Below are positions 10,759 through 64,000 of a stretch of DNA of 64,000 bases, piece after piece; position 1 is the stretch's first letter, and every line of letters starts with the position of its first letter. Origin of the DNA: Bacteroidota bacterium. GTDB taxonomy: Bacteria; Bacteroidota; Bacteroidia; Bacteroidales; VadinHA17. The translations under genes and the position numbers were made by a program. Below the pieces are notes generated by a model. That model was not told where the DNA came from. It did no database searches and saw nothing but the letters and a program-made list of their open reading frames with translations. The stretch covers positions 16,029 through 80,028 of the forward strand of contig DRFJ01000053.1 of assembly GCA_011050615.1 (NCBI GenBank), written 5' to 3'.

Positions 10759-10763
10759 AATTA

Positions 10764-16802: not shown

Positions 16803-16819
16803 AACTTGGATTTATTAGG

Positions 16820-17587: not shown

Positions 17588-17911
17588 AAGTATCCAGTAA
17601 TCAAGGATGTATGAATGTGATACAAGATCCTCTTACACGTACTAAATTACAATTTAAAATAGATACTATGAAATAATTGAAAAAAATGATTTTATGTCAG
17701 ATAACATATTTTTATGGAGCCAGGAACGGCTGGTGATTGTGGACAGCAGGTGGCGGGCAATACTGCAACCGAGTCATGCGCGCCCGCTAAACCCTGGAGA
17801 ATTCGGGTAGCAGGTGATGACTGACAAAACTACATGTATATTATGTCAAAAAATCTTAATATTTTTGTGGCATGATATATGTAAATATATCGATATCTAT
17901 ATAAATAAAGA

Positions 17912-18502
17912 ATGATGGACATAAGGGATATTTCATCGCTTGAAGATCTGAGGAAGATAACAGGGAAAAATGAAAGGGCTTTCCTGCTCCTGTATAAAAG
18001 TGGTACCGAGAATAGTAACTGTGCGGTTAATGTACTTGATGAACTTGAAGAGAGTCTGTCTGAAGGACTGGTATTCATGAAAGCTGATGTATCCGCTGTA
18101 AGAGATATCCACCCGGAATATGGTATTGTGTCGGTTCCTGCGCTTCTTGAATTCCGATCCGGCATACTTAAAAATTTAATTAAAGGCTGTAACAGCAAAG
18201 AATTTTATATTTCTGCCATCAAAGGTTCACAGCCCCGAATGCAGTCCGGTGAGGAGAAAAGGCAAAAGAATGTAACGGTTTACTCAACACCCACTTGTAC
18301 ATGGTGCAATACCTTAAAATCCTATCTCAGAGAACGGAAAATACAGTTCAGGGACATTGATGTATCGGCTGATCAGAAGGCTGCCGGGCAAATGGTAAAC
18401 AAAAGTGGTCAGCAAGGTGTTCCTCAAACAGACATTGATGGTCATGTTATAGTAGGCTTCGATAAAAAGAAAATAGATAGTTTGCTTGAATCAGGAAATT
18501 AA
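17912..18502 (+). CDS. thioredoxin-fold domain (no CxxC) fused to a glutaredoxin-like domain
   Basis: The N-terminal ~110 aa is thioredoxin-like with a single Cys (SNCAV). The C-terminal ~75 aa is NrdH/YruB-like glutaredoxin, with VYSTPTCTWC and GVPQT. Confidence 0.6.
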   Translation: MMDIRDISSLEDLRKITGKNERAFLLLYKSGTENSNCAVNVLDELEESLSEGLVFMKADVSAVRDIHPEYGIVSVPALLEFRSGILKNLIKGCNSKEFYISAIKGSQPRMQSGEEKRQKNVTVYSTPTCTWCNTLKSYLRERKIQFRDIDVSADQKAAGQMVNKSGQQGVPQTDIDGHVIVGFDKKKIDSLLESGN

Positions 18503-18517
18503 ATTAAAACACATGAT

Positions 18518-19039
18518 ATGAAAAAAATTAGTTATGCTCTTCTGGCAATCTTAATTATGGTTGCGGTCAGTTCATGTTCAACAAGCACTGCGGCAGATAA
18601 TAAGGAGAAGGATGATAAGGAAACCGGAGTGTCATCAGATCAGGGACAGTCAGGCTCCATACATCTTACCAAAGCAGAATTTCTTGCAAAGGTTTATAAT
18701 TATGAGAAGAATACTGAATCATGGGTTTACGAAGGAGATAAACCAGCTATAGTAGATTTCTATGCTGACTGGTGCCAGCCCTGTAAGATAGCAAGTCCCA
18801 TACTGGATGAACTTGCAGAAGAATATGAAGGAAAGATATACATATACAAGGTAGACACCGAGAAAGAAAGGGAACTGGCTGCAGCATTCGGCATCAGGAG
18901 TATTCCTGCCTTCCTCCTTATACCTATGGGTGAGATGCCACAGATGTTCAATGGTATCGGACAGACAAAAGAAGCCACCAGGGAGATTTTTGTACATGCG
19001 ATAGATGAAATATTATTAAAAACCAAAAACAAAGACTAA
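18518..19039 (+). CDS. thioredoxin-family lipoprotein
   Basis: Lipobox VSSC, a low-complexity linker, and thioredoxin active site WCQPC followed by SIPAF. Confidence 0.8.
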   Translation: MKKISYALLAILIMVAVSSCSTSTAADNKEKDDKETGVSSDQGQSGSIHLTKAEFLAKVYNYEKNTESWVYEGDKPAIVDFYADWCQPCKIASPILDELAEEYEGKIYIYKVDTEKERELAAAFGIRSIPAFLLIPMGEMPQMFNGIGQTKEATREIFVHAIDEILLKTKNKD

Positions 19040-19041
19040 AA

Positions 19042-19326
19042 ATGAAAGAGTTACAGCCAATAAATCAGCAGGTGCTCCTGGAACTCGAAGGCTCTAAAGA
19101 GGAGAAAACGGCGTCAGGTATTATAATTCCTGAGACTGCTAAAGAGAAGCCTAAATACGCAAGGGTTGCCGCTCTGGGTGCTATCGAGAAAGCGGAAATC
19201 AGCGTTGGTGACCTGGTCTTTTATAAAAATTTTTCCGGGAATGAAATCGAATTTGGAGGTAAAGATTACCTGATGGTTCCTTATGCAGACATACTGGGAA
19301 AAGTTGTTGAAACAGATAAGATATGA
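19042..19326 (+). CDS. groES: GroES/Cpn10-like co-chaperonin (no groEL adjacent)
   Basis: 94 aa. Mobile-loop region EEKTASGIIIPETAKEKP and C-terminal ILGKV. It starts 2 nt after the thioredoxin stop. Confidence 0.75.
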   Translation: MKELQPINQQVLLELEGSKEEKTASGIIIPETAKEKPKYARVAALGAIEKAEISVGDLVFYKNFSGNEIEFGGKDYLMVPYADILGKVVETDKI

Positions 19327-19399
19327 TCATTGCCTCACCGGCTCCAGATGAATTTTACAGATTTGCTTTTTAATAAGCCTGTTCTATTTGCTGCTATAT

Positions 19400-19432
19400 A
19401 AAAGCTCCGGAAAAACACCGGGGCTTTTTATT
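19400..19432 (+). terminator. rho-independent terminator after the groES-like gene
   Basis: Stem AAAGCTCCGG / CCGGGGCTTT (one G-T pair) with a 7-nt loop, followed by a T-rich tail. Confidence 0.6.
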
Positions 19433-19530
19433 TCTCTCATAATTCATCCCTCCAATGCCTCAGCCTGTTTTTTTCATTTGGTGATGATAATTTAATTGGA
19501 TATTTTCACCCCTGTTTATTTTTATGATAT

Positions 19531-20469
19531 ATGATAGAAAAACATTACTCTATTGGGGTTGATATAGGAGGCAGTCATATTACATGTGCAGCTGTTGACC
19601 TGGATGAAAGAAGGATCATAAGGGAAACCCTTACCGAAAGGTCTGTGGATAATAAAGGCACGGCAGATGAAATCATAAGCAGGTGGTCGGAGGCACTGTC
19701 TGAAACATTTGAAAAACTTGGACTGGATAATATTAAGGGCATTGGCTTTGCAATGCCGGGTCCTTTCGATTATGTAAATGGCATTTGTCTTATTAAAGGA
19801 GTGCCCAAGTACGAAAAACTATACGGGATCAATATCGGTGAAGCCATAGCAGAATCTTTAAGCTTACAACCGGGAATGCCTGTAAGATTCATGAATGATG
19901 CTTCTTCTTTTGCTGTAGGCGAGGCCTGGGCAGGCAAGGCTGCCGCCAGCAACAGGTTAATGGCAATAACCCTTGGAACCGGACTGGGATCAGCCTTTGT
20001 TGCTGACAGGGTACCTGTGGTAACCGGGGATGTGGTTCCTGACCTGGGATGTGTTTATCACATCAGTTTCCGTGATGGAATTGCTGATGACTATTTCAGT
20101 ACACGCTGGTTTATTGGAAGGTATAAAGATATAACCGGGAAGGAAAGCCAGGGGGTCAGGGAAATTGCTGAAGCTGCAAGATATGATGGGGATATAAGGA
20201 ATATCTTTGTTGAATTCGGCACTTCCCTTGGGGCCTTTCTTTCGCCTTACCTGATAAAGTTTGGGGCTGAAGTCCTTGTCATGGGTGGGAATATATCACG
20301 TGCATATGGTCTCTTTGGTCCGTCGATGGAAGAGAAAATGAAAGCAGAAAAGTGCGATACCCTAACACTCCTGTCCGAACTTAAGGAAGATGCGGCCCTG
20401 CTGGGCAGTGCTTACCTTCTCGATAATTTGTTCTGGAGTTCAGTGAGGGGATCACTTCAGTATATGTAA
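19531..20469 (+). CDS. ROK family sugar kinase
   Basis: 312 aa. DIGGSHI ATP-binding motif, GLGSAF, and the ROK core. Confidence 0.75.
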   Translation: MIEKHYSIGVDIGGSHITCAAVDLDERRIIRETLTERSVDNKGTADEIISRWSEALSETFEKLGLDNIKGIGFAMPGPFDYVNGICLIKGVPKYEKLYGINIGEAIAESLSLQPGMPVRFMNDASSFAVGEAWAGKAAASNRLMAITLGTGLGSAFVADRVPVVTGDVVPDLGCVYHISFRDGIADDYFSTRWFIGRYKDITGKESQGVREIAEAARYDGDIRNIFVEFGTSLGAFLSPYLIKFGAEVLVMGGNISRAYGLFGPSMEEKMKAEKCDTLTLLSELKEDAALLGSAYLLDNLFWSSVRGSLQYM

Positions 20470-20488
20470 TTGAAAAAAAACCAATAAC

Positions 20489-21652
20489 ATGAGTTCAAAA
20501 ATCAATTTATACAGGGTACTGCCTGTTCTGATGTCTTTTTTCGTAATGAGTTTTGTCGACCTGGTTGGCATAGGGGTCGACAGAGTCAGCTCTGATATGG
20601 ATTTGAGTGCAACTGTTGCACAGCTCATCCCCTCTGCTGCCTTCCTCTGGTTTTTCCTCCTTTCGGTACCTGTGGGTGTAATGCAGTCGAGGCTGGGCAA
20701 GAGATTCATGCTTAACATAGGAATGCTCGTTACAGCCATTGGATTATTGGTACCCTTCTTTTTCTATTCCTTTGCCATGGTTCTGACAGGATTTGCCCTT
20801 CTGGGTATAGGCAATACCATAGTGCAGGTATCAGCAAACCCGCTGCTGGTTGATGTAGTCCCCGGCCACAGGGCATCAAGTTTTTTAAGCTTCTCACAGT
20901 TTATTAAAGCAATAGGCTCCATGCTTGGAGCTCCTTTAGCGGCAGTTTTTGCCTCACGGCTCGGTGACTGGAAAATTCTTTTCCTGGTATATGGAATTGT
21001 ATCTATCATAACAGTTTTGTGGCTGGGTTTAGTAAAGATCGATGAATCAAGAGAGGGTGAAATAAAAGCATCTTTTGCATCCGCTTTCAAATTGTTAGGG
21101 AACAAATTTGTCTTATTAATGGTACTGGCAATTTTCGTTGTTGTTGGTGTTGATGTGGGTTTTAATTCCAATTCCGGGCAATTTTTTATTAAGAGCTTCG
21201 GTCTGGAACAAACAGTGGCAGAGTCAGGAAGAAGTGTATACTTCTTTGGAAGAATGCTCGGGACCTTTGGGGGGGCACTGTTGCTTACAAGAATTCCTTC
21301 GCGCAAGTTCAATATCTGGACAAGCATTCTGGGGATTTTGTCTTTTGTGGCCATACTGGTTCTGCGCTCGGAGGCTGCCGCCTGGGTGCTAACATTCTTA
21401 ATAGGTCTTTTTGTGGCCAATATATTTCCCCTTGTATTTTCAATAGCCGTTGAAGAATATCCCGGCAGGAAGAATGAGATCTCAGGATTGATGATGATGG
21501 CCATCTCAGGAGGAGCAGTTATACCGCTGCTGATGGGCTGGGTTACTGATATAAGTACCAATCTTTTTGGAATGGCTGTTCTGCTGGCATGCATGATTTA
21601 CCTGCTGGCAGCCGCCCTCTATGCATTCAGATTTCATGCCGCCAAGTCATAA
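20489..21652 (+). CDS. MFS sugar transporter (FucP/GlcP-like)
   Basis: 387 aa with about 12 TM segments. Sits between a ROK kinase and a sugar-phosphate isomerase. Confidence 0.7.
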   Translation: MSSKINLYRVLPVLMSFFVMSFVDLVGIGVDRVSSDMDLSATVAQLIPSAAFLWFFLLSVPVGVMQSRLGKRFMLNIGMLVTAIGLLVPFFFYSFAMVLTGFALLGIGNTIVQVSANPLLVDVVPGHRASSFLSFSQFIKAIGSMLGAPLAAVFASRLGDWKILFLVYGIVSIITVLWLGLVKIDESREGEIKASFASAFKLLGNKFVLLMVLAIFVVVGVDVGFNSNSGQFFIKSFGLEQTVAESGRSVYFFGRMLGTFGGALLLTRIPSRKFNIWTSILGILSFVAILVLRSEAAAWVLTFLIGLFVANIFPLVFSIAVEEYPGRKNEISGLMMMAISGGAVIPLLMGWVTDISTNLFGMAVLLACMIYLLAAALYAFRFHAAKS

Positions 21653-51777: not shown

Positions 51778-52197
51778 TCTCCGGACTTTCTTCCGGCTTA
51801 TGGTCTTACCTTTGTAATAATAGGAGCCAGGCACAAAAATAACTGGATTTTCATAAGGAATAAACGCAGAAAGGCATATGAGCTTCCGGCAGGTCATATC
51901 AATCATTCCGAGGATGCTGATGATGCAGCCAGAAGGGAGTTGGAGGAAGAAACCGGGGCCTTGAAATATACTATTGAGTGTATTGCAACTTATACAGTCA
52001 GTGAAGAGGGCAGGGACAGGGCCGGAAGATTATATTATGCAGTGGTAGGGGTAATGGGGGGGGAAGTTGATGATAATGAAGTTGATGAAGTACTGTTATG
52101 CGGATCATTGCCTCAAAAATTAAGTTTTCCCTGTGTTCAGGCTGTTTTGTTTGCTTATCTTGAAAAATATCATGCCTGTCAAATAAATTCAAGGTAG
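51757..52197 (+). CDS. NUDIX hydrolase
   Basis: NUDIX box GHINHSEDADDAARRELEEETG. Start taken at MLKVDF. The ORF opens at 51712. Confidence 0.7.
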   Translation: MLKVDFHSPDFLPAYGLTFVIIGARHKNNWIFIRNKRRKAYELPAGHINHSEDADDAARRELEEETGALKYTIECIATYTVSEEGRDRAGRLYYAVVGVMGGEVDDNEVDEVLLCGSLPQKLSFPCVQAVLFAYLEKYHACQINSR

Positions 52198-53360
52198 ACT
52201 TCCTTTAGCCAGTTTTCTTCCAGCAGGGAAGCTAACTTCTTCACGACATTACGCCTTATTTCAAGACCAACCGGAAGGCTTGGATCCTGATGTGCAATAT
52301 TGATCCTAGTGCCAATAATGAACATGATCTCATCCGATTCCATAAAAAGCCTTACTATTTTATCAGCCGGTCCCTTACCAGGTTTGTATTTTTTATAATT
52401 CCCGAGAATTTCGGCTACTTTTTGAAGGCTTAATATACCTTCGGTAACAAGGTCAATTCCTTTAATAAAACTTTCAGGCGGCAGTTCGGGATCTTCAAAA
52501 ACCATGTTGTCAGTTATTTCCTTCCCTGTTTCCCTTGCGATTATATCTGCTGTAGTACCACCACTAATAATTACCTTTCCAGGAAAATCCATAACCTTTG
52601 ATGCAAGCAGCCTGTCATTGTCCTTCTCATAAGGAGGACCTGTACACAGCAGCAGCTTCCTGGGTTCCCTGAAATATATTCCGGCGCAACTTGTATCGTC
52701 CCTGGACCTGTATCCATCGTTCTTATGAGCCATGGTAACGATTTTTGCAGCCAGCTTTCCTGCTGATATTGTTGGTTCAGATGATATTATCATTCTCGAA
52801 TAACTTATTAAATTTTCCCTGCCCCATCCGGAAGGATAGCTTTCACTGCCCAGTCCGCTCTGTAAAACCCCGTCGGTGCATGATATTATCCTGTCCTCCT
52901 TCCCGGCAGTGAAAGAGCATGTTACAAGCTGCCTGCCGGCATGCCTGCCCTCAGTAAGCTCTACTTTCTCCCAGGAGGGCTCATATATTTCAGTGCCCCT
53001 GATTACAATGCACGGAGGATTGTCGAACTCGAGAATTGTAACTCTTCTGTCAATTTCAATATCAATTATGGTAAAAGTGGCATAACTTATCTTTCTCTCG
53101 GAACATATTGGCAGGGTGTTCATTATTATTGATGCAATCTTTTCCACCTCCTTGTGTTCACGAGTAAAATTTAATGCCATGGTTGCGCTCAGCGTTGCAA
53201 GAATATTTGCTTTTACGCCATGACCCATACCGTCAGAAAGTACGGCAATAATCCTTCCTTCCTCCCTGATTCTTTTTGAAAGAAAGACGTCACCGCAAAT
53301 CTTCTCTTCATAATGACTTCTCTGCTGACAGTCTACTTCTATGTGAAACTCCTTGTTCAC
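52179..53360 (-). CDS. SpoIIE/PP2C-type Ser/Thr phosphatase with an uncharacterised C-terminal domain
   Basis: 393 aa. N-terminal CGDVF...AVLSDGMGHGVKA and a later CTDGV are metal-binding PP2C/SpoIIE motifs. The C-terminal ~190 aa (GGTTADIIARETG...) matches no family I recognise. The gene lies 8 nt downstream of the PAS-type HydS-like gene. Confidence 0.7.
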   Translation of the reverse strand: MNKEFHIEVDCQQRSHYEEKICGDVFLSKRIREEGRIIAVLSDGMGHGVKANILATLSATMALNFTREHKEVEKIASIIMNTLPICSERKISYATFTIIDIEIDRRVTILEFDNPPCIVIRGTEIYEPSWEKVELTEGRHAGRQLVTCSFTAGKEDRIISCTDGVLQSGLGSESYPSGWGRENLISYSRMIISSEPTISAGKLAAKIVTMAHKNDGYRSRDDTSCAGIYFREPRKLLLCTGPPYEKDNDRLLASKVMDFPGKVIISGGTTADIIARETGKEITDNMVFEDPELPPESFIKGIDLVTEGILSLQKVAEILGNYKKYKPGKGPADKIVRLFMESDEIMFIIGTRINIAHQDPSLPVGLEIRRNVVKKLASLLEENWLKEVYLEFI

Positions 53361-53368
53361 AGGCCTTT

Positions 53369-55246
53369 TTATAAATTTTTAGTCTTATTCCCTTCCTTGT
53401 TTTCTCTGTATGATTCCAGTATTGAGTTAAGCATTTTTTCAGTCTCTGAAGCTCCTTCTCCGAGGAGGAAGCCTATTTTCTGGACCATATCAAGATTCTT
53501 TTCAATCACATCATTAATCCGTGTAATTATTTCTTCCCTCTGAACCTCAGGTGAAAACATATCACGTATTACAGCTCCGGCTATCTTGCTTTTGCTTATC
53601 GGGAAAACTGAAATATTAAGCATCTTTTCATTGAATCTTATATCCCTGTTAATAACGGATTCATTCTGCCTCAAGGCAAAGGTAAACATGTTATAAACAT
53701 TGAAGGGCAGTAATGATTTAAGATCAGCACCCTTTAACCCGGGTATGATTTCTGAAATATTTACGGCATCTTCTCCGGCAATATTTATAAAAGAGTTATT
53801 GGAATGAATTACCTTCAGGTTTTCGTCGACTATTACCACTGCCGAGGGCAGTTTCTCAAGCATTGAATTAACCGTTTTTGACGCTTCCTGGGTCAGCTCT
53901 TTCTCCCTGTGTGCAAGAGCTTCCGATTCCCGGAGGGCTTTTTGAGTCTCTGATAATTTTTTGTTTGTTATTCTCAGTTTTTCAATATACTCCTGTTTGT
54001 TTCTGATATTATATTTGTGACACATCTCGGGGATTGTTAGCCCCATGGCCACCGTCACTGCAAAATCACGGCACGATTCGTAGCCGCATGCCCTGCAGTT
54101 GTCTTCAATCAGCTTACCTGTTCTTCCTATTATACTGAGTACTTCATTAATGGCCGATTCAGGGGGTTCAGGTATTCTCTGATCATCTGCCCTGAATTTT
54201 CTTGAATAATCAAGCACACTCCACTTCTTCATATCCTTTTCCCATTGCTCCCTGTCCAGTTCCTTAAGCCTTTTATCAGTGTAGAGTCTGACCAGGTTAC
54301 GCCTCCTGTACCTTTCGCTGTGGTGATCCATTCCGGGACCCAGCAGGCAGCCCTGGCAAAAGAAAAGGTTGAAATGATGCTTTATGGTATCAATGTGACC
54401 GTGGAAATCCTTAAGAGCCTCGCTTGTGTCGTCTTTTCCGGATGCAGTAATAATGCCACTTTCCATAACGTCACGTTCTATTCCTGCGGCATATATTATT
54501 CCTGAAGGTATTGGAAATAAAGCGCCATAATTGCCATATGGAGGATCGAAATCAGAAAACTTGACTTTCTTTTCTTCTATCCCTGCTTCTTCGAAAAGCT
54601 TCCTCAGTTCAATAAAGGTGAGAACGGAATCAATTGCACTCTTGCCCTTCTCTCTCAGTGCTTCATCCTTGCTGTCGATACAGGGCCCAAGGTGGATAAC
54701 ATTGGCATCTTTTCCGTATATCTCTTTTACTATCATCCCGGTGGCTGTCATGGGAGATACAAGAGGGGCAAGATTTGAAACGAGCCCGGGATAGTATTTC
54801 TCTATCATCTTTACAATGACAGGGCAATTTGACGTGATAAAATACTTGCCCTGAGATGATTCGAACAAGTCACGGTAGCGTGCAGCAATTATATCAACCC
54901 CGAAAGAAACTTCGTGCACATGGTCAAAGCCCAGTTGTCTTACCATTGCAACAAGTTTCCTGTAATCGGTTATATCATCAAACTCTGAGGCTATGCTGGG
55001 GGCAACCAGTGCTATGTTTTTTCTTCCGTTCCCGAGTAATCTGAGCGTTTCTTCCGTTGAATCCCTGAATCTGATAGCCTTCGCCGGGCAGGCTATAAAA
55101 CATAGTCCGCAGCCAATACACCTTTCAGAAATAACAGCAGGATGTTGATTGCCTGCCTTTACCTCAATGGCCTTTGCCGGACAAACCCTGATACAACTGT
55201 ATGAATCGGTGCATTTATCCTGGTCAATGTACATGATTGGCTCCAT
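53369..55246 (-). CDS. hydS: sensory-type [FeFe]-hydrogenase homolog with C-terminal PAS domain (HydS/HfsB-like)
   Basis: 625 aa. N-terminal 2x[4Fe-4S] ferredoxin motifs (C..C..CIRVCP, CIGCGLCFIACP). H-domain with variant motifs ITSNCP (N140-C141), GPCIDSKDE and FFCQGCLLGPG. An extra CRACGYESC cluster motif is followed by a PAS-like region (LPSAVVIVDENLKVIHSNNSF...). Confidence 0.75.
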   Translation of the reverse strand: MEPIMYIDQDKCTDSYSCIRVCPAKAIEVKAGNQHPAVISERCIGCGLCFIACPAKAIRFRDSTEETLRLLGNGRKNIALVAPSIASEFDDITDYRKLVAMVRQLGFDHVHEVSFGVDIIAARYRDLFESSQGKYFITSNCPVIVKMIEKYYPGLVSNLAPLVSPMTATGMIVKEIYGKDANVIHLGPCIDSKDEALREKGKSAIDSVLTFIELRKLFEEAGIEEKKVKFSDFDPPYGNYGALFPIPSGIIYAAGIERDVMESGIITASGKDDTSEALKDFHGHIDTIKHHFNLFFCQGCLLGPGMDHHSERYRRRNLVRLYTDKRLKELDREQWEKDMKKWSVLDYSRKFRADDQRIPEPPESAINEVLSIIGRTGKLIEDNCRACGYESCRDFAVTVAMGLTIPEMCHKYNIRNKQEYIEKLRITNKKLSETQKALRESEALAHREKELTQEASKTVNSMLEKLPSAVVIVDENLKVIHSNNSFINIAGEDAVNISEIIPGLKGADLKSLLPFNVYNMFTFALRQNESVINRDIRFNEKMLNISVFPISKSKIAGAVIRDMFSPEVQREEIITRINDVIEKNLDMVQKIGFLLGEGASETEKMLNSILESYRENKEGNKTKNL

Positions 55247-55600
55247 AGTGGCTTGTTTAATTATTTGTTAATATCGAGCTTATCCTTAAGTAACTCTTCG
55301 ATATTGACCCTTTTATATCCCCGCCTATTTCATCGTTAAATGAAATTCTGGCCCTTTTTGGCAATTATCAGGGCATATCCTTATTTCATCATGGCTTTTC
55401 AATTTTATTGTTTATTTCATAACATTTCAAATTTAATCAATTAATTAATACAGATTTTAAAAAATAGAATTCCTTTTAAAGATATATTATGATACATTTT
55501 CATATAGTGTTCACATAATGAAATTTTGCATCCGGAAAGTCATAAGAATGTTAAACAATAGATTAACAGATAAATAATATTGGATTATAAGATTATTCAA

Positions 55601-55620
55601 AGTGTTAATAAAATAACACT
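55601..55620. promoter_or_regulatory. inverted repeat AGTGTTA-N6-TAACACT in the hydS/hydC divergent intergenic region (candidate operator)
   Basis: Perfect 7-bp arms. The TGT...ACA cores are spaced as in the canonical Rex operator TTGTGAAnnnnTTCACAA. 9 of the 14 specified positions match. Confidence 0.3.
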
Positions 55621-55642
55621 GTTTATTGTGTAACAATATTTA

Positions 55643-55659
55643 TATTGTTTATATTTGTA
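55643..55659 (+). promoter_or_regulatory. promoter-like 17-mer TATTGTTTATATTTGTA containing a Bacteroidota -7 box (TAtaTTTG) upstream of hydC
   Basis: It matches the TAnnTTTG consensus and lies 27 nt before the ATG at 55684. The identical 17-mer recurs upstream of rex at 63332-63348. Confidence 0.45.
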
Positions 55660-55683
55660 ATGCACGAATATTTCCATCTGAAA

Positions 55684-56157
55684 ATGGATAAAAAAGCAAG
55701 AAATACTTCAGGTAAATATAAAATTTCCGGCCGGAACGACCTGATACCTTTGTTACAGGAAATTCAGGCAGAAAAGGGATTTATTTCGCAGGAATCAATT
55801 AAGGAACTTGGCGAACTTCTAGGAATAAGTACTACAAGGATATACGGCGTGGCCAGTTTTTATGACGGTTTTCTTTTTTCACCAAAGGCCAGGGTGCATA
55901 TTCGTATCTGTAACGGATCAGGCTGCTATGTGAACAGGACTTTTAGCATTGTCGATGTTATGGCGGAAGAGCTTAAGATCAGACCGGGTGATAAATCAGC
56001 TGACGGCAGGTTCAGCATTGAGATGGTGGATTGTATGGGGGCATGTCATCTTGGACCCCTGATAGCTGTTAATGACAAATATTATACAATTGGTTCAGAA
56101 AGAGAACTGAGACAAATACTCGGGAGGATAAAGAAGGATGAGCAGGCTGGCATATAA
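55684..56157 (+). CDS. hydC: NuoE/HydC-type [2Fe-2S] subunit of a multimeric [FeFe]-hydrogenase
   Basis: Thioredoxin-like [2Fe-2S] ligands CNGSGC and CMGAC. Start taken at MDKKARN, because the -7 box at 55650-55657 lies inside the longer ORF that opens at 55645. Confidence 0.8.
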   Translation: MDKKARNTSGKYKISGRNDLIPLLQEIQAEKGFISQESIKELGELLGISTTRIYGVASFYDGFLFSPKARVHIRICNGSGCYVNRTFSIVDVMAEELKIRPGDKSADGRFSIEMVDCMGACHLGPLIAVNDKYYTIGSERELRQILGRIKKDEQAGI

Positions 56158-58099
56158 ATATAATGAGGGAGATAACAGGAGCTTCCTTATAGAAGAGGTA
56201 CTTGCTAATCGCTCCGATACTGTAAGCAGTGATGTGCAGACCGTCCTGGATAAAATTAGCAGGATCAATTCAGATATCCCTGTTATTTCAGTGTCATTCA
56301 ACAGCGGAAGTATTATTTCCGGTGCTGGTAAAACTTATGAAGCTGTTATGCAATATCTCCTTGACTATGACGTGCAGGCAGGCATTATGAAAGGTGGATG
56401 GTCTGGTGCTACCAATTTTGACCCTGTGGTAACGATCAGGCTGCCGGGTAAAAATAACTTGTTTTTCAGGAATATATATCCTGAGAAGGTTGAGAGCCTG
56501 CTGAACGGAGTGCTGCATTATGAAATCCCAACTGATGATTTCCTGGGCCAGGAGGGAACTAATAAGTTCAGAGAATGGCCCGGACTGAGCTACCTTTCCG
56601 ATCATCCCTTTATGAAGTTTCAGAAGAGATGGCTGCTGAACGAGGGTGAGTCATATGAACCTGCTGATATTGAATTATATATTGCGAACGGAGGATATAA
56701 GACACTGGTGAAAACGCTGGGTAGTTACACTATTGAAGAGGTATGTGACATTATTGAAAAAAGCGGTTTAAGGGGCAGAAGCGGAAGTGGCTTTCCCACG
56801 GGTAGAAAATGGAAATATGCCCTGGCTTCAGATTCTGAAATAAAATACCTTGTCTGCAATGCCCGTGAGAGCGATCCGGGTGCTTTTACCGATAAGATGC
56901 TGATAGAAGGGCAGCCACACAAACTGCTGGAAGGCATAGCAATAGCATCCTATGCCATGGGGGCGTCAAAGGCTTTTATTTATATACAAAACGGTGCTGA
57001 TTATACAATCTCAGTGTTAAAGGAATCCATAAAACAGGCATATGATTACGGCCTTCTGGGATATAATATATTCGACAGCGGATTCGGCCTGGATATAGAA
57101 TTAAGGATCGATCCCGGAGCGTTTGTATGCGGTGAAGAAACAGCCCTGATAGGCAGCCTTGAAGGAAGAAGGGGTATGCCACAGGTGAAACCCCCCTTCC
57201 CTTCCTCCTCGGGACTGAATAACTGTCCAACCGTTATCAATAACGTGGAGACCCTGATGAATGTACCTCTTATTATGAAAAACGGGCCTGAATGGTTCAG
57301 CGCGGCAGGAACTCCTGGCAGTAAGGGAACAAAGGTATTCTACCTCTCAGGTAAATCAGCTCTAAAGGGTATTATTGAGGTAGAGATGGGTACCTCCCTA
57401 AGGTCAGTGATAGAGTATACTGGTGAGGGCGTTGCAGGAGGCAAGGGCCTGAAAGCGCTGCTGATAGGAGGGATGTCAGGCTATCTCCTCCCCGAAAGAA
57501 AGCTTGATATTGCCATTGATTATGAAGAATTGAAGAAGGCTGGAGCAGGAATGGGGTCGGGCGGACTCGTTGTAATTGATGAGAATACCTGCCTTATTGA
57601 TCTTTCAAGATACCAGATGGAATATATGCAGAACCAGAGTTGTGGGAAATGTATACCCTGCCGTGAGGGTACATCACGAATGTTTGAAATATTATCAGGT
57701 GTGGTTAAAAAACCACCTGTTGAATCGTCAATGACAACCCTTGAGAGGTTTAAGGGTGTAATGCAGCTTGAAAATATCGCAAGTGTAATGAAGGAAACCT
57801 CCCTTTGTGGACTGGGCCAGAATGCACCCAACTTCTTTCTTTCTGTCCTTGCTGATTTCAGGGATGAACTGGAAGAACATATTTTTGACCGCCGTTGCAG
57901 GGCAAATCGCTGTCATGGCCTTCGTACCTTTGTTATCGATGTTGATAAATGCACCGGATGTACCCTGTGTGCTGATAAATGTCCGGTAAATGCCATTTAT
58001 GGGACCCGGTTGCAGCCTTTTTTTATTGTGGAGGAAAAGTGTACGGGTTGTGGCATATGCTATGATGTATGCAAGTTTGATGCGGTTTCAGTAAAGTAA
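56138..58099 (+). CDS. hydB: NuoF/HydB-type flavoprotein subunit (NAD(P)H/FMN, Fe-S) of a multimeric [FeFe]-hydrogenase
   Basis: 653 aa. GRSGSGFPTGRKW (FMN), CNARESDPGAF (NADH), CGEETALIGSLEG, SCGKCIPCREG ([4Fe-4S]), and C-terminal 2x[4Fe-4S] motifs CTGCTLCADKCP and CTGCGICYDVC. 20-nt overlap with hydC. Confidence 0.85.
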   Translation: MSRLAYKYNEGDNRSFLIEEVLANRSDTVSSDVQTVLDKISRINSDIPVISVSFNSGSIISGAGKTYEAVMQYLLDYDVQAGIMKGGWSGATNFDPVVTIRLPGKNNLFFRNIYPEKVESLLNGVLHYEIPTDDFLGQEGTNKFREWPGLSYLSDHPFMKFQKRWLLNEGESYEPADIELYIANGGYKTLVKTLGSYTIEEVCDIIEKSGLRGRSGSGFPTGRKWKYALASDSEIKYLVCNARESDPGAFTDKMLIEGQPHKLLEGIAIASYAMGASKAFIYIQNGADYTISVLKESIKQAYDYGLLGYNIFDSGFGLDIELRIDPGAFVCGEETALIGSLEGRRGMPQVKPPFPSSSGLNNCPTVINNVETLMNVPLIMKNGPEWFSAAGTPGSKGTKVFYLSGKSALKGIIEVEMGTSLRSVIEYTGEGVAGGKGLKALLIGGMSGYLLPERKLDIAIDYEELKKAGAGMGSGGLVVIDENTCLIDLSRYQMEYMQNQSCGKCIPCREGTSRMFEILSGVVKKPPVESSMTTLERFKGVMQLENIASVMKETSLCGLGQNAPNFFLSVLADFRDELEEHIFDRRCRANRCHGLRTFVIDVDKCTGCTLCADKCPVNAIYGTRLQPFFIVEEKCTGCGICYDVCKFDAVSVK

Positions 58100-58104
58100 T
58101 TATT

Positions 58105-59820
58105 ATGCTGATAACTATAGAAGTAAACAGTAAGAAACTGAAGGCTGAAAAGGGAGAGACAATTCTCAACGCCCTGAACAGGAATGGTATAAATATACCC
58201 ACTCTCTGTCGCCTCAGGGATCTTACACCAACAGGAGCATGCAGGATATGTGTGGTTGAGGTGGAAGGTGAGGATATGCTTGTCACAGCATGCTCTGAAC
58301 CTGTAAGGGAATGGATGAAGATAGAAACTCATTCCCCCAGGGTTATCAGAGCGAGAAAGGCCATAGTTGAGTTGCTGCTGTCAAATCATCCTGACAATTG
58401 CCTTTATTGCGACAGAAATCTTAACTGCGAATTACAGAGAATAGCCAGTGAACTCAATATCCGGGAACGCAGATTAAGTGGCAAAAAAATGACTCTCAAG
58501 CTGGACCAGTCCAGTCCTGCCATAACAAGAGAATTGTCAAAATGTATCCTATGTGGCCGATGTGTTCGTATATGTGAGGAAGTGGTGAAAGTAAATACCC
58601 TGGATTTTATTGGAAAGGGAAGGGCCATACATATAGGTACCGCAATGGATAAGGATTTTAATTTCTCAAGTTGTATACATTGTGGTCAGTGTCTTAATGT
58701 ATGCCCTACCGGTGCCCTTCATGAAAAATACAATATAGGAGAGGTCCAGGATTATCTTACAAAGAAAGATACACTGAAGGTAATTCAGTTTTCTCCACTC
58801 GTGGCCTTCTCGCTTGCCCGGGAGATGGGCTTAAAATATTCTCAGAACTTTGATAAAAAGCTGAATGAGGCGCTTTACCGGATAGGATTTGACAGGGTTT
58901 ATTGCACAGGTTTTGGTTCTGATATAATGATAAATGAACTGACGGAAATGCTGGAAAATAACAAAACCGGTAAATTGAATGATACTATATATACATCGCA
59001 TTGCCCTGCCTGGGTAAAATATGCAGAACAATTTATGCCCGGTATTCTTGAAAAGCTATCTGGATTGAAATCGCCTCAACAAATTACAGGAGCAGTAATT
59101 AAAGCACTGGTCCCCGGTATCGAGGCAGTAAACCCCGAAAATATATATTCTGTATCAGCTACCCTTTGTACGGCGGCCAAATATGAAGCCCGACGGGATG
59201 CGATGACCAGGAAGGGAATAAGTGACATAGAAACCATACTTACAGTGCGTGAACTGGCGCAGCTTCTAAGGCTTTACGGTATAAATATGGATGTGCTTGA
59301 TGGAAGGAATGTTGATGAACCAATGAACCTTGCCAGTTTCTCGGCATTAATGACCGAGATTTCCGGGGGCCTGACCGAGTCAGTTGTAAAAATTATTGCT
59401 CAGAATAATGGCATAGAGCTCTCTTCCTCTGATATGAGAAAATTAAGAGCAGCAGGTGATTTCAGGGAATTGATGGTAAGAGCAGGTGAGCATGAGTATA
59501 ACTTTGCAGTCATTGATGGTCTTGCAGGCCTGGATATGCTCAGGAGTAAAATGCGATCGGTCCATTATGACATGGTTGAAATAATGGTCTGCCAGTCAGG
59601 TTGCGTGAATGGAGGCGGAGTTAACAGTGATGAGAATGGTGAGTCGGTCAGAGACCGTCTTAAGATGATATACAAAAGTGAAGAAAATTCTGCCATTAAA
59701 ATGCCAGTGGATAATCCGGCAGTTAGAAATTTTTATGAAAAATGGCTTCCGCTTGATAAAGACATATCAGATAAAAAGATATTCAGAAACAAATATTCAA
59801 AAAAGGACGTCCTTCTATGA
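58105..59820 (+). CDS. hydA: [FeFe]-hydrogenase large (H-cluster) subunit, M3-type architecture, with non-canonical H-cluster motifs
   Basis: 571 aa. N-terminal [2Fe-2S] ligands (C35..C46..C49..C63), HPDNCLYCDRNLNC, CILCGRCVRIC and CIHCGQCLNVCP. The H-domain reads TSHCPAW (H299-C300), KSPQQ, TLCTAAKYE (C355) and EIMVCQSGCVNGGG (C496, C500). Confidence 0.8.
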   Translation: MLITIEVNSKKLKAEKGETILNALNRNGINIPTLCRLRDLTPTGACRICVVEVEGEDMLVTACSEPVREWMKIETHSPRVIRARKAIVELLLSNHPDNCLYCDRNLNCELQRIASELNIRERRLSGKKMTLKLDQSSPAITRELSKCILCGRCVRICEEVVKVNTLDFIGKGRAIHIGTAMDKDFNFSSCIHCGQCLNVCPTGALHEKYNIGEVQDYLTKKDTLKVIQFSPLVAFSLAREMGLKYSQNFDKKLNEALYRIGFDRVYCTGFGSDIMINELTEMLENNKTGKLNDTIYTSHCPAWVKYAEQFMPGILEKLSGLKSPQQITGAVIKALVPGIEAVNPENIYSVSATLCTAAKYEARRDAMTRKGISDIETILTVRELAQLLRLYGINMDVLDGRNVDEPMNLASFSALMTEISGGLTESVVKIIAQNNGIELSSSDMRKLRAAGDFRELMVRAGEHEYNFAVIDGLAGLDMLRSKMRSVHYDMVEIMVCQSGCVNGGGVNSDENGESVRDRLKMIYKSEENSAIKMPVDNPAVRNFYEKWLPLDKDISDKKIFRNKYSKKDVLL

Positions 59821-61802
59821 ATTCGCTCGGGAGGAACAGGCAATTGGTTTATACACGCAGGGAACTTTGCAGGACATGCTATACATGTGTGAGGGAGTGT
59901 CCGGCCAAAGCTATAAGGATAGAAAACGGACAGGCAGAGGTAATACATGAAAGGTGTATTGCGTGTGGAAATTGCACCAAGGTTTGCAGCCAGGGAGCAA
60001 AAGTCTTTATGTGGACAAAGGATATAGTGGGGGAAATACTCAGATCAGGAAATACTGCAGCGATAATAGCACCGAGCTTTCCTGCAGAATTCAACGACCT
60101 CCCGGACCACAGGATCCTTGTTTCAATGATAAGGACCCTGGGCTTCAGTTATGTAAGTGAGGTTGCCTTTGGCGCTGATCTTGTAGCCGACCGCTACCGT
60201 CGGCTACTGAATAATTCCGAAGGGAAGTATTATATTTCCTCTGACTGCCCTTCAATATCAAGATTTATTAAATACTATCATCCTAACCTGGCGGCTAACC
60301 TGGCCCCGGTGGTTTCTCCGATGGTAGCGATGACCAGGGCCATGAGGAAGCTGCACGGGAAGGACCTTAAAATTGTATTCATAGGGCCCTGTGTGGCTAA
60401 AAAAGATGAGAGTACAGAGGTTGATGAGGCAATTACTTTTACTGAACTGAGAAGCATGTTGGCAGACAAAGGCATAAGCCCGGAGAATGTTGAACCAACT
60501 GAATTTGACCCTCCCCTGGGAGGTAAAGGTGCTATTTTCCCTGTAGCCAGGGGCTTGCTTCAGACAGCAGGTATTAATGATGATGCCGTTTCAGGAAATA
60601 TAATAGCTGCTGAAGGAAGAACAGCCTTCCAGGAGGCCATTAAAGAATTTGAGGAAGGCCAGATTCATGACCAGCACCTTGAACTGCTCTGTTGTAAGGG
60701 TTGTGTTATGGGACCAGGATTTACCGACCGCGGAAAATATTACAACCGCAGAGCTCATGTAAGCAGCTATGCCCGTAAAAAACTCGAGTCAACGGATCAT
60801 GGGCAATGGAAGGAATATTTCATCAGAATGAATGATCTTGACCTGTCAGTTAAGCATGAACCGGATGACAGGAGACTTGAAAGCCCCGGAAATATTGAGA
60901 TTGAAAATGTCCTGAGACTGATGGGAAAAACCAGTATCAAAGATCATCTGAATTGTGGTGCTTGTGGATATGAGACATGTATTGAACATGCTGTTGCAAT
61001 AAGCAAGGGCCTGGCCGAGGTGGAGATGTGCCTGCCATTTACAATAGAACAGTTACACAATTCTGTAAATGATCTGGCTCTTTCCAATGAAAAGCTGAGT
61101 TCAATGAAGCAGGCGCTCAGACAATCAGAAAAGCTTGCCCACATGGGTCAGCTATCTGCAGGTATAGCTCACGAACTGAATAATCCTCTTGGCGTGGTAA
61201 TTATGTACAGTAATATTTTACTGGAAGAATGTGCAGAAGATGATCCTTTAAGGGATGATCTGAACCTGATAACCGAGCAGGCGGCCAGATGTAAAAAAAT
61301 TGTATCAGGTCTGCTCAATTTTGCAAGGAAGAGCCAGGTAAACCATGATTATACCAACCTGAACGAAGTCGTTAAGCAAAGCCTTGAGTCCCTTATAATA
61401 CCCGAAGGCATTGATTTAATAACGGAGGATAGATCGGATAATCCTTCTGCCATGATGGATAGCGAACAGATGATACAGCTTATCTCGAACCTGGTTAAAA
61501 ACTCGGTGGATGCAATGAAGGGAAGGGGGAAGGTGAAAATTACCCTGGAGGATACCGATAAAAACGTCAAAATGAAGATATGGGATGACGGACCCGGCAT
61601 AGACGAAGATAAAAGAGAAAAGATATTTGAGCCATTCTTTACTACCAAGGAGACAGGTAGCGGAACCGGACTTGGGCTGGCAACTGCCTATGGTATAGTG
61701 AAGATGCATAAGGGCCAGATAAAGGTCGATTCAAACAGCAATCCGGGAAAAGGCCCTACATGGACACAATTTATTATAAGCATACCAAGGACAAATGAAT
61801 AA
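59817..61802 (+). CDS. sensory-type [FeFe]-hydrogenase homolog fused to a histidine kinase (HisKA + HATPase_c)
   Basis: 661 aa. N-terminal ferredoxin motifs ([23 protein letters not shown]). H-domain variant motifs ISSDCP (D143-C144), GPCVAKKDE and [12 protein letters not shown]. Extra motif CGACGYETC, a coiled coil, H-box [13 protein letters not shown], and N/G boxes ([21 protein letters not shown]). ATGA overlap with the hydA stop. Confidence 0.8.
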
Positions 61803-62187
61803 AAAGAAGACAGTTTTTGTTGTTGATGATGATCCGGATTACCTTTTTCAAACGGTAGTCCACCTTGAAAAAGCAGGGTATAATGTGATAAGTGCTGTTA
61901 GTCAGAAAGAGGCAGAGGATATTATAGATACTGTAAAACCGGATATTGCACTGCTTGACCTCATGATGGAACAGGATGACAGTGGTTTTATACTTTGTTA
62001 TAAACTGAAGAAAAAATATCCGGACCTTCCTGTAATAATTGCTACCTCTGTTTCTAAGGAAACAGGCCTGTCTTTCGGCCTGGATTCAGAGGAGGAAAGA
62101 AGGTGGATAAAGGCAGATGCTTACCTTGAAAAGGGAGTAAGAGCTGAACAGCTAAACGATGAAATTAAACGCCTGTTAAAAATATGA
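61795..62187 (+). CDS. single-domain response regulator (REC only)
   Basis: 130 aa. DDD at 11-13, phosphoacceptor in ALLDLMM, IIATS, and conserved Lys in YLEKG. 8-nt overlap with the preceding kinase gene. Confidence 0.85.
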   Translation: MNKKKTVFVVDDDPDYLFQTVVHLEKAGYNVISAVSQKEAEDIIDTVKPDIALLDLMMEQDDSGFILCYKLKKKYPDLPVIIATSVSKETGLSFGLDSEEERRWIKADAYLEKGVRAEQLNDEIKRLLKI

Positions 62188-62188
62188 G

Positions 62189-63322
62189 ATGGCTGAATTA
62201 AAGGTATTGATAGTGGATGATGAAGCCGGAATCAGATCTGGCGTCAGCAGGATATTGAACAGGTTCCGGGTTACATATCCTTTTATGGATGAAGCCTATA
62301 CCTATAAGGTGCTTGAGGCTGAGACAGGTGAAAAGGGCCTTGAGATAATAGACAGTGAACAGCCGGATATAGTGTTGCTGGATAATAAGCTGCCCGGAAT
62401 TTCCGGCGTTGAAGTACTTGACTATATTAAGCAGAAAAATTATGACATTGTTGTAGCAATGATTACCTCATATGCATCGCTCGACGTGGCATTGAGGGCT
62501 ACAAGGGACGGGGCCACCGATTTTATACCCAAACCCTTCACACCGCAGGAACTTAAATCCTCGATTGAGAATATAACAAAGCAGCAATATCTTAAAAGGA
62601 TAACAAGCAGGATGAAGGAGGAAGGGAAAAAGATCCGGTTCCGGTTCCTGTCGGTTCTGTCGCATGAGCTTAAGTCACCACTGAATGCGGTGGAAGGCTA
62701 TCTGAATATGATGAGAGACAGGGAGGCTGGGAACGATATAAACGATTATGCTGAGATGATTGAAAGATCAATACAGCGTATCCAGGGAATGCGTACCCTG
62801 ATTATGGATCTGTTGGATTTTACCAAGATAAAACTGGAAGTGAAGAAAGATAAAGTGGTTGAATTAGATCCTGCCTTGCTTATGACACAATGTGTAGAAA
62901 CAATAAATCCACTTGCCATACAGAAAGATGTCTCAATAGTAATTGAAAAAAAATCAGATGTTATTATTTCAGCCGATGAAGAGGATATGAACATCATTTT
63001 CAATAATCTGCTTTCAAATGCGGTAAAATATAATAAAGAGGGAGGACAGGTTGTTATCACAATCGACAGGGAAGGGAACGATGCCGTAATGGAAGTGAAG
63101 GACACTGGTATTGGAATCAGCAGTGAAGACCAGCAGGTTCTGTTTAATGAGTTCGTGCGTATTAAAAATGATAAAACACGTAATATTGCCGGAAGCGGAC
63201 TGGGTTTGTCGATCGTGAAAAAGATTGCGGATTTGTATCAGGGTTCGATAACAGTTGCTAGCAGGCCTGATGAAGGAAGTGTTTTTAAATTGAAACTTCC
63301 AGTAAGGCAGGAAAAAGAATGA
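62189..63322 (+). CDS. hybrid REC - HisKA - HATPase_c histidine kinase
   Basis: 377 aa. N-terminal receiver (VDDE, LLDNKLPG, FIPKPF). H-box LSHELKSPLNAV. N/G boxes (LLSNAVKYN, DTGIGI, GSGLGLS). No TM segment or sensor domain. Confidence 0.85.
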   Translation: MAELKVLIVDDEAGIRSGVSRILNRFRVTYPFMDEAYTYKVLEAETGEKGLEIIDSEQPDIVLLDNKLPGISGVEVLDYIKQKNYDIVVAMITSYASLDVALRATRDGATDFIPKPFTPQELKSSIENITKQQYLKRITSRMKEEGKKIRFRFLSVLSHELKSPLNAVEGYLNMMRDREAGNDINDYAEMIERSIQRIQGMRTLIMDLLDFTKIKLEVKKDKVVELDPALLMTQCVETINPLAIQKDVSIVIEKKSDVIISADEEDMNIIFNNLLSNAVKYNKEGGQVVITIDREGNDAVMEVKDTGIGISSEDQQVLFNEFVRIKNDKTRNIAGSGLGLSIVKKIADLYQGSITVASRPDEGSVFKLKLPVRQEKE

Positions 63323-63368: not shown

Positions 63369-63989
63369 ATGAAAAAACTACCAGGAAAAACTGTTGAAAG
63401 GCTGAGTGGTTACCGCAGGAACCTTCTGGGCTACCTGGCTGCTGGTAATAACTACATATATTCCCATGAACTGGCTGCCCTGTTGCATATAACTGCAGTG
63501 CAGGTAAGAAGAGACCTGATGCTCATAGGGTATTCGAGTGTTCAGAAAAAAGGTTATGATGTAAAGGAGCTTATAGATACTATTGGTACGATAATTGATT
63601 CCGAACAAGGCCAGAATATTGCAGTAATAGGTATAGGAAACCTTGGACGTGCCATAACTTCCTACTTCAAGGGCAAAAGATCCAAGCTCAATATTGTTGC
63701 TGCATTCGACAATGATCCCCAGAAAGTTAACAGGGTAATAGCAGGAGTCAGATGCTATCCCGTTGAAAAGATGGAGCATATTATAAACGAACAGAATATT
63801 ACCATTGCTTTACTGACAATACCTCCCGATTTTGCCCGACCTGTCGCTGATGCAGCAATAAGGGCCGGGATAAAAGGCATACTAAACTTTACAACTGTTC
63901 CCCTGAATGTACCACTAAATGTCTATCTTGAAGAGTATGACATGATTACATCAATTGAGAAAGTCGCATATTTTGTGAAAGAAGGATAA
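63369..63989 (+). CDS. rex: redox-sensing transcriptional repressor Rex
   Basis: 206 aa. N-terminal winged-helix RLSGYRRNL...SHELAALLHITAVQVRRDL and Rossmann motif VIGIGNLGRA. Confidence 0.9.
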   Translation: MKKLPGKTVERLSGYRRNLLGYLAAGNNYIYSHELAALLHITAVQVRRDLMLIGYSSVQKKGYDVKELIDTIGTIIDSEQGQNIAVIGIGNLGRAITSYFKGKRSKLNIVAAFDNDPQKVNRVIAGVRCYPVEKMEHIINEQNITIALLTIPPDFARPVADAAIRAGIKGILNFTTVPLNVPLNVYLEEYDMITSIEKVAYFVKEG

Positions 63990-64000
63990 GGACAAGAGCA

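Follow-up and report, generated by a model that had tools for sequence, protein, structure and literature searches.

Group A3 [FeFe]-hydrogenases of the HydABC type, known structurally from T. kivui (8a6t), A. woodii (7q4v) and T. maritima (7p5h), are encoded by three genes in a conserved order: a HydA subunit of M3 architecture is accompanied by HydB, with its flavin mononucleotide (FMN) domain, N3 cluster, CxxxxC site and C-terminal 2x[4Fe-4S] domain, and by the [2Fe-2S] subunit HydC, with sensors and a kinase encoded nearby. The relay Cys (C299), E279, E282, R286, K358, M353 and F417 are invariant in these enzymes and in 53 canonical representatives, and of these the relay Cys, the E279/E282 chain and K358 count as requirements of nearly every [FeFe]-hydrogenase. 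Residue positions follow the numbering of the C. pasteurianum enzyme CpI, which served as reference together with the three structures above. Here we describe a locus near the end of a 64,000-nucleotide stretch (hereafter the window; positions 16,029 to 80,028 of contig DRFJ01000053.1, assembly GCA_011050615.1) from a Bacteroidota bacterium of the VadinHA17 lineage (Bacteroidales). It shares all the group A3 features of subunit composition, cofactor domains and neighbouring sensors just listed. However, every one of the invariant residues is replaced in its HydA, which also scores below the NCBIfam cut-offs, and the N-terminal domain of its HydB is free of Cys.

Other described systems each share part of this picture. 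Sensory [FeFe]-hydrogenases of groups C (TmHydS) and D (TamHydS) also have no Cys299 (Ala in TmHydS) and miss canonical proton-pathway residues; group D enzymes replace M353 with a hydroxyl residue, and low activity would be expected of the window HydA as in these sensory enzymes (PMC8163306, PMC6226526, PMC10407848). Exchange of M353 for Ser or Thr is the rule in group D, whose members bind the H-cluster (PMC8163306). However, the sensory enzymes are of the M2 type, with a C-terminal Cx2Cx4Cx16C cluster and with or without a PAS domain, whereas HydA has a full M3 N-terminus, HydBC partners and no signalling domain. The group D relay Glu at V423 (E252 of TamHydS) is also absent, this position being Leu in HydA and L, M, I or F in its clade. 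The NiFe-HydABCSL complex of A. mobile (7t2r) and other non-hydrogenase BfuA proteins present a HydA homologue in a HydBC core without a canonical H-cluster site (PMC8880783, PMC9304861). In NiFe-HydABCSL, though, nothing is left of the H-domain motifs and the genes of separate catalytic subunits lie beside hydA, whereas the window HydA keeps the H-domain and its four cubane cysteines. Variation at the relay itself is known: in CpI and CrHydA1 an Asp299 works, whereas turnover is almost lost with Ala or Ser at this position (PMC6226526), and the natural TSCSP motif of A. woodii HydA1, with Ser as cubane ligand, supports activity (PMC10021017). Unlike the window HydA, these proteins have an otherwise intact pocket and proton pathway. 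Our literature search returned no data on a His variant at 299, nothing relevant on TSHCP, on a natural C299H/C169H variant or on a K358-less HydABC, and no characterised His-variant subgroup, which the earlier note on this DNA had named as a possible refutation. We likewise found no published description of the clade to which this HydA belongs. An apparent mention of C169H in PMC6226526 arises from the formatting of 'C169 HydA1'.

What we describe is best seen as a new and widespread HydABC variant in which the surroundings of the H-cluster have been remodelled; the His at position 299 is a detail of one sub-lineage. HydA may not be a normal hydrogenase, its lineage having lost most residues thought to be essential for fast H2 catalysis. 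We tentatively read it as a remodelled, sensor-like and probably slow subunit of a HydABC hydrogenase. A subunit free of the [2Fe]H subcluster is nearly as likely, and we rank the slow enzyme slightly higher. In what follows the gene order, domains and cluster ligands, the substitutions with their distribution and conservation, and the maturase neighbourhood are observed, whereas [2Fe]H binding, H2 activity, a role for His299 or Glu418 and bifurcation are inferred.

The open reading frame (ORF) at 58105-59820 (+) is intact and encodes 571 amino acids (aa). The earlier note had reported in it the motifs TSHCPAW, TLCTAAKYE and EIMVCQSGCVNGGG, all of which are present. The elements on which the argument turns are the following.

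58933-58953, + strand: helix NELTEML (aa 277-283), aligned with CpI M277-L283; E278 is kept, E279 becomes Leu, T281 becomes Glu and E282 becomes Met
58993-59013, + strand: L1 motif TSHCPAW (aa 297-303), with His299 encoded by CAT at 58999-59001, as claimed, and C300 as a cluster ligand
59161-59187, + strand: L2 motif TLCTAAKYE (aa 353-361), with Ala358 encoded by GCC at 59176-59178 and followed by Lys359; C355 and E361 are kept
59353-59358, + strand: T417-E418 in place of CpI F417-G418, position 417 being Ala, Thr or Ser and Glu418 being conserved across the clade
59578-59625, + strand: L3 motif EIMVCQSGCVNGGGVN (aa 492-507), which keeps the Met equivalent to CpI M497 and the Cys equivalents of C499 and C503, and in which GGGQP becomes GGGVN

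The same HydA protein is encoded on contigs of several samples, and five contigs of the same population are 99.96-99.99% identical in DNA to the window. A pseudogene or assembly artefact was ruled out by the intact ORF, the identical protein across samples and synteny in about 80 species. His299 in particular is genuine, and not an assembly error or a chance event, because it is found on contigs of multiple samples and in 10/10 of the closest sequence clusters.

Membership in the H-domain family is clear, with a PF02906 score of 185 bits against a cut-off of 22.1. The cofactor domains of HydA comprise a [2Fe-2S] domain, a His-ligated [4Fe-4S] cluster, a 2x[4Fe-4S] domain, the H-domain and a small-subunit-like tail (PF02256). 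Its best match in the Protein Data Bank (PDB) is T. kivui HydA1 (8a6t_A, E = 6e-114); the NiFe-HydABCSL subunit 7t2r_A matches residues 3-205 only. An AlphaFold2 model built from a 35-sequence alignment gave pLDDT values mostly of 75-94 over the H-domain, the Fe-S N-terminal domain being modelled poorly. Foldseek searches with it returned T. kivui HydA1 (8a6t_A) at rank 1, with A. woodii HydA1 (7q4w_A) and CpI also among the top matches; 7qv7_D superposed with a root mean square deviation of 3.0 A over 361 columns.

HMMER alignments to the solved structures pair the His with CpI C299, Thr-Leu with M353-P354 and Ala with K358, both motifs being free of gaps, and the match of His to C299 is seen in every alignment run, profile-level ones included. 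At these motifs the register given in the earlier note is therefore upheld against both CpI and the HydABC structures. The same alignments bear out the presence of S319 and of the four [4Fe-4S]H cysteines; these ligands are C300, C355, C496 and C500 of HydA (CpI C300, C355, C499 and C503), and they are invariant in the 120 sequences of the clade. The accompanying statement that the two upstream Glu residues of the proton pathway are present did not survive. A register that pairs the Glu residues of NELTEML with 279 and 282 is produced by single-sequence phmmer alone, through a compensated one-residue shift, and was rejected. Three ungapped methods (a MAFFT family alignment, hhalign profile-profile comparison of the clade with canonical enzymes, and the clade profile against the PDB) put Leu on E279 and Met on E282, and the D273-C299 segment is of equal length in CpI and HydA. 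Similarly, the claim that three positions differ is right for the three named and falls short of the total. A230S, S232L, F417T, G418E, V423L, M424T and Q509V are further replacements, and the surface residues H565K and H569R differ too, as does S320G. HydA departs from catalytic group A in its L1 (TSCCPxW), in its L2 (MPCxxKxxE with K358), at E279/E282/R286 and with respect to the NCBIfam cut-offs.

The remodelled pocket belongs to a whole clade. The 120 best database matches and 80 genome loci all come from metagenome-assembled genomes (MAGs) of uncultured Bacteroidales or Bacteroidota, and these operons occur in 80 or more species-level MAGs, whose sources are peat, soil, sediment and digesters. 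How far His299 and Ala358 spread, a point that the earlier note had left to a wider alignment, can now be stated: the two occur together only in the ten closest of the 120 clusters, and not in the clade as a whole. His299 is restricted among the 120 to these ten (at least 68% identity), where it is found in 10/10, together with K358A (10/10), S232L (10/10) and an acidic residue at 281 (9/10). In the other 110 orthologue clusters (58-61% identity), position 299 is Ala in 87, Val in 10, Ser in 5, Thr in 5 and another residue in 3. M353 is replaced by Thr in 100 of these clusters, F417 by Ala in 99 and A230 by Ser in all 110, and GGGQP reads GAGLP. Glu at 418 is found in 109/110 of them and in 8/10 of the His299 clusters; the M497 equivalent is kept in 103/110 and 10/10, respectively. 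C300, P301, W303, C355, C499, C503, S319, K322, S323, Q326, K359, G421, G422, E425 and E495 are invariant in the clade, as is E278, and the KSPQQ loop is retained.

In a rough neighbour-joining tree the His and Ala groups are sisters, joined next by other non-canonical clusters and then by the large canonical clade. His299 has also arisen independently elsewhere, in four further representative clusters, K358 being kept in one of them (P0260). Three more distant M3-type non-canonical clusters (P0123, P0145 and P0184) have Ser299, no K358 and a GGE sequence in which V423 is replaced by Glu, the relay residue of group D TamHydS. Another representative, P0121, is 4122 aa long and contains seven separate H-domain matches to the query (E = 1e-237), with the canonical-looking motifs FTSCC... 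and MPCTVKKTE at its start; this could reflect a fusion of several hydrogenases or an error of gene prediction. A candidate member of the clade is the B. thetaiotaomicron 'group A3' HydA, which produces only 0.26 nmol H2 min-1 OD-1 after [2Fe]adt activation (PMC12578642 supplement); a second homologue search and two cluster look-ups returned uncultured sequences only.

These distributions bear on the proposal of the earlier note that a natural Cys-to-His relay operates here. In its full form, HydA would be a fully catalytic group-A-type enzyme whose proton pathway is canonical but for His299, an adapted relay that would tune pH profile, catalytic bias or O2 response. The His is real and conserved in its sub-lineage (10/10), where it co-occurs with K358A, S232L and the acidic residue at 281; S319 and E278 are invariant; C299D shows that a relay other than Cys is workable (PMC6226526); and His299 is found in the four other representative clusters, including the one with K358. 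However, the pathway is not intact. E279 is Leu, E282 Met and R286 Asn in the profile-level alignments, and His299 therefore has no canonical chain to feed. K358, M353, P354 and F417 are absent as well, and orthologues at the same locus carry mostly Ala, Val, Ser or Thr at 299. The double-His/Ser/Glu entrance motif, which has been linked to high activity (bioRxiv 10.64898/2026.09.22.753672), is missing but for E278 (H565K, H569R, S320G). We consider this form of the proposal unlikely.

The genes of the hydrogenase locus are arranged in the window as follows.

52179-53360, - strand: PP2C/SpoIIE-type phosphatase, partner of the PAS-type HydS (Pfam SpoIIE, E = 1e-14), syntenic in most of 80 related loci
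53369-55246, - strand: HydS-like sensory [FeFe]-hydrogenase paralogue, here called PAS-type HydS (Pfam Fe_hyd_lg_C, E = 3e-42; PF04060)
55645-56157, + strand: HydC, NuoE-like [2Fe-2S] subunit (Pfam 2Fe-2S_thioredx, E = 1e-38)
56138-58099, + strand: HydB, NuoF-like FMN subunit with a C-terminal 2x[4Fe-4S] ferredoxin domain (Pfam Complex1_51K, NADH_4Fe-4S, Fer4)
58105-59820, + strand: HydA-like large subunit, M3 architecture (Pfam Fe_hyd_lg_C, Fer2_4, NADH-G_4Fe-4S_3, Fer4_Nqo3, Fe_hyd_SSU)
59817-61802, + strand: HydS-histidine kinase (HydS-kinase), a sensory H-domain fused to HisKA and HATPase domains (Pfam Fe_hyd_lg_C, FeS, HisKA, HATPase_c)
61795-62187, + strand: stand-alone response-regulator receiver (Pfam Response_reg), syntenic
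62189-63322, + strand: hybrid receiver-histidine kinase (Pfam Response_reg, HisKA, HATPase_c), syntenic
63369-63989, + strand: Rex-type redox-sensing repressor, the last gene of the window (Pfam Put_DNA-bind_N, CoA_binding)

HydC, HydB, HydA, the HydS-kinase, the receiver, the hybrid kinase and Rex form one tightly packed operon, and the PAS-type HydS and PP2C phosphatase genes lie upstream of hydC and are divergently transcribed. Synteny of the nine genes (PP2C phosphatase, PAS-type HydS, HydC, HydB, HydA, HydS-kinase, two response-regulator genes and Rex) holds in essentially all 80 loci. The longest hydC ORF begins with TTG at 55645, and the called gene on the same-population contig L081 starts at the equivalent of 55684 and encodes 157 aa. 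Between the PAS-type hydS and hydC lies a 398-bp AT-rich divergent intergenic region (55247-55644). Although rex ends the operon, this promoter region contains no Rex operator TTGTGAAN6TTCACAA at up to three mismatches, and matches at the same threshold in the whole window are below chance expectation.

The maturation genes lie just beyond the window. The 64 kb contain neither hydE, hydF or hydG nor a canonical TSCCP paralogue, the genes that the earlier note had suggested seeking in the rest of the genome, and in that sense the search of the window was negative. On same-population contigs, however, the genes after Rex encode a RibF-like FAD synthetase, HydG, a TM1266-like protein, saccharopine dehydrogenase and HydE, with HydG and HydE 1-5 kb past the window end; HydF was not found within 10 kb of Rex. 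On contig L081 this segment spans 15901-21213, just past window position 64000, with HydE on the opposite strand and a TM1266-like protein of ACT type. The orthologues at locus L001 exceed the NCBIfam cut-offs (HydG 491 bits against 312, HydE 319 against 255), and HydG is present downstream in 40/46 related loci with full flanks. The RibF-like gene is syntenic in most related loci, and beyond HydE contig L084 continues with a C_GCAxxG_C_C protein and an ADP-forming acyl-CoA synthetase.

That the gene encodes a HydA-type subunit in a HydABC-type operon, as the earlier note held, agrees with the close packing of HydC, HydB and HydA and with an intact HydBC core. Both partners of a HydABC/Bfu complex are present, a NuoE-like HydC and a NuoF-like HydB with its FMN domain and clusters. 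The best PDB matches of HydB are B subunits of Bfu-type enzymes (9bov_B, 7t2r_B, 9n5u_B and 7q4v_B; E down to 5e-155, and 4e-153 for 7t2r_B). Its cluster cysteines from C485 on, covering the N3 cluster, the CxxxxC site and the C-terminal 2x[4Fe-4S] domain, are invariant (73/73), and the [2Fe-2S] motif CX4C...CX3C of HydC is found in 71/71 orthologues. The thioredoxin-like domain of HydB (aa 1-200; 56138-56740) has no Cys in the window protein, and therefore no N-terminal [2Fe-2S] cluster (B5); the same region contains one Cys in the 87%-identical L001 protein and 3-5 in most orthologues of the Ala type. Cluster B5 is regarded as off-pathway (PMC8880783). A HydBC core of the bifurcating type has to be served by a third redox couple at about -400 mV, and the H-domain is the sole relevant catalytic domain at the locus. 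Genes for another catalytic partner ([NiFe] S/L, Fdh, Nfn-type and the like) were found neither in the window nor within 10 kb downstream.

These observations are the basis for our preference for a slow hydrogenase. In outline, the gene would encode HydA of a HydABC (Bfu-type) complex from a lineage known so far only from uncultured Bacteroidales MAGs, in which the H-cluster pocket has undergone systematic remodelling. Electrons would enter from NADH at the FMN of HydB and from reduced ferredoxin at its C-terminal clusters and would reach [4Fe-4S]H by way of the four accessory clusters in HydA. The [2Fe]H subcluster would be retained, built by the adjacent HydG and HydE, in a sensor-like environment: a pocket without the relay Cys, the E279/E282/R286 chain and the K358 anchor of the distal cyanide, with Thr for M353 and with a small residue and a conserved Glu for F417-G418. 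Because of this altered environment slow or biased H2 turnover would be expected. In the His sub-lineage His299, placed next to the bridgehead amine, might act as a local base; since position 299 is Ala in most orthologues, water or Glu418 would have to take that role there. Expression would be governed by the two flanking H2-sensor paralogues, the phosphorelay and Rex. The intact HydBC core and the lack of another catalytic gene at the locus support this reading, as do the conserved and polar character of the new pocket residues (A230S, M353T/S, G418E) and the invariance of the [4Fe-4S]H cysteines and scaffold, with the M497 equivalent largely kept. The synteny of HydG/HydE, H2 sensors and Rex in about 80 species, usual for regulated hydrogenases, supports it too, and the confidently predicted H-domain fold, with T. 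kivui HydA1 as best match, points the same way.

Several results weigh against a working H-cluster, however. Only S319 is retained among E279, E282, S319 and R286, the other three being Leu, Met and Asn. The K358 column of the 110 clusters is Met in 105, and a Lys at +3 from C355 is found in 53/53 canonical representatives and 67/67 HydS-kinase sequences. Exchanges of K358 in CpI and CrHydA1 block [2Fe]H incorporation. In CpI, activity drops below 1% in the C299A/S and E279A/Q variants (PMC6226526). Scores of HydA fall under every NCBIfam trusted cut-off for hydrogenases, among them those for TIGR02512 (group A; 303 bits, below 406) and NF040763 (NADH-dependent group A6; 520 bits, below 765). 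The [2Fe]H-contact and proton columns, essentially invariant in the 53 canonical representatives, show average to high variability in the clade: within it, S232 stands at the 88th percentile of variability, E279 at the 79th, C299 at the 74th, E282 at the 71st, V423 at the 68th, F417 at the 54th and K358 at the 47th. Among representatives at 50% identity, 70 have both Cys299 and Lys358, 6 only the Cys, 13 only the Lys and 36 neither, so that the two losses are coupled (Fisher's exact p = 2e-14, a value not corrected for phylogeny). Such coupling points to a functional shift of the whole pocket and not to a tuned single substitution. Finally, the maturases and sensors could conceivably serve the HydS paralogues alone. 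A Lys at this position is also kept by a Bacteroides group B enzyme, whose motif reads GPCVAKRKE (Lys at +3 from C355; PMC12578642 supplement).

The same results favour a different subunit, one that contains the [4Fe-4S]H cubane only and serves, in place of a hydrogenase, a Bfu-type NADH/ferredoxin enzyme with a different third partner under H2-sensor and Rex control. Losing K358, C299, E279, E282, R286, M353 and F417 together is what such a protein might be expected to show, as are relaxed constraint on the [2Fe]H-contact columns beside invariant cubane ligands and NCBIfam scores under the hydrogenase cut-offs. The coupled loss of C299 and K358 in many independent clusters, next to a HydS-kinase sensor that keeps K358, fits as well. 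There is precedent in the H-cluster-less HydA of Bfu enzymes, which include 17 BfuB clades of unknown function (PMC9304861, PMC8880783), and the HydA of NiFe-HydABCSL and eukaryotic Nar1-type proteins are cubane-only analogues. Nevertheless, no gene for an alternative catalytic partner is present in the window or within 10 kb downstream, and nothing else at the locus supplies a couple near -400 mV for the bifurcating core; the polar pocket residues and M497 equivalent are conserved, and the synteny with HydG, HydE and H2 sensors is tight. We regard the cubane-only subunit as possible, if somewhat doubtful, and continue to place the slow hydrogenase slightly ahead of it.

The two flanking paralogues provide a direct comparison for the pocket. 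In the HydS-kinase (67 sequences), position 299 is Asp in 67/67, and K358 (67/67), F417 and A230-P231-S232 are kept; M353G and M497L are changes, and E279, E282 and S319 are also missing. It resembles group C1. Asp at 299 is the one engineered substitution known to leave CpI active (PMC6226526). The PAS-type HydS, laid out as 2x[4Fe-4S], H-domain, C-terminal FeS motif and a long C-terminal region, resembles the phosphatase-linked group C3; in 65 sequences it has Asn299 (65/65), K358 replaced by A, N or S, and K359 kept. The sensory-type C-terminal Cx2Cx4Cx16C/PF04060 motif or signalling domain is present in both paralogues and absent from HydA. The earlier note had set HydA apart from the degenerate pattern of its sensor paralogues; the reverse is nearer the truth, since the HydS-kinase keeps K358 and F417 whereas HydA lacks K358, F417 and M353. 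Judged by these columns, the surroundings of [2Fe]H have diverged no less in HydA than in the sensors. We also note that the HydS-kinase pocket is nearer to the canonical one than that of the operon's HydA, and that [2Fe]H binding is as much in question for the PAS-type HydS as for HydA.

A better preserved pocket next door suggests one more arrangement, in which HydA is mainly a scaffold and electron wire to which the HydS-kinase docks, either to read its redox state or to supply the H2-reactive site. The hydA stop and hydS-kinase start share an ATGA overlap, the kinase retains K358, F417, A230-P231-S232 and an Asp299 that is competent in CpI (PMC6226526), and extra catalytic subunits of Bfu enzymes are encoded right after bfuA (PMC9304861). 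We think docking very improbable, as the HydS-kinase lacks E279, E282, S319, M353 and M497 and has a complete kinase module typical of sensors, and as three loci (L043, L064 and L079) keep HydCBA with the kinase paralogue missing.

What the HydA pocket does matters beyond this genome. HydA is under strong purifying selection, inside an intact core of the bifurcating type and beside maturases and two H2 sensors. If it is active, a new proton route (through His299 or Glu418) and a Lys-independent hold on the distal cyanide would be implied; if inactive, a new non-hydrogenase branch of the Bfu family. It is conceivable, if somewhat doubtful, that these Bacteroidales 'HydABC' operons do not encode hydrogenases at all, their H-domain having kept [4Fe-4S]H and lost the [2Fe]H site in a new Bfu-type enzyme that uses a different third substrate or partner and answers to true H2 sensors. 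In that case metagenomic counts of H2 producers would be too high for this lineage, which occurs commonly in anoxic soils, in peat and sediments and in digesters. Its HydA is taken for a group A hydrogenase by homology-based pipelines: JGI annotates the lineage proteins as group A or HndD hydrogenase, and NCBI uses generic domain names.

Elsewhere in the window, the sole radical-SAM ORF (9958-10758) is a glycyl-radical activase and not a maturase. The region 9958-13139, unrelated to the hydrogenase locus, begins with this activase (266 aa, CX3CX2C at residue 28); the 791-aa ORF that follows is taken as a putative glycyl-radical enzyme.

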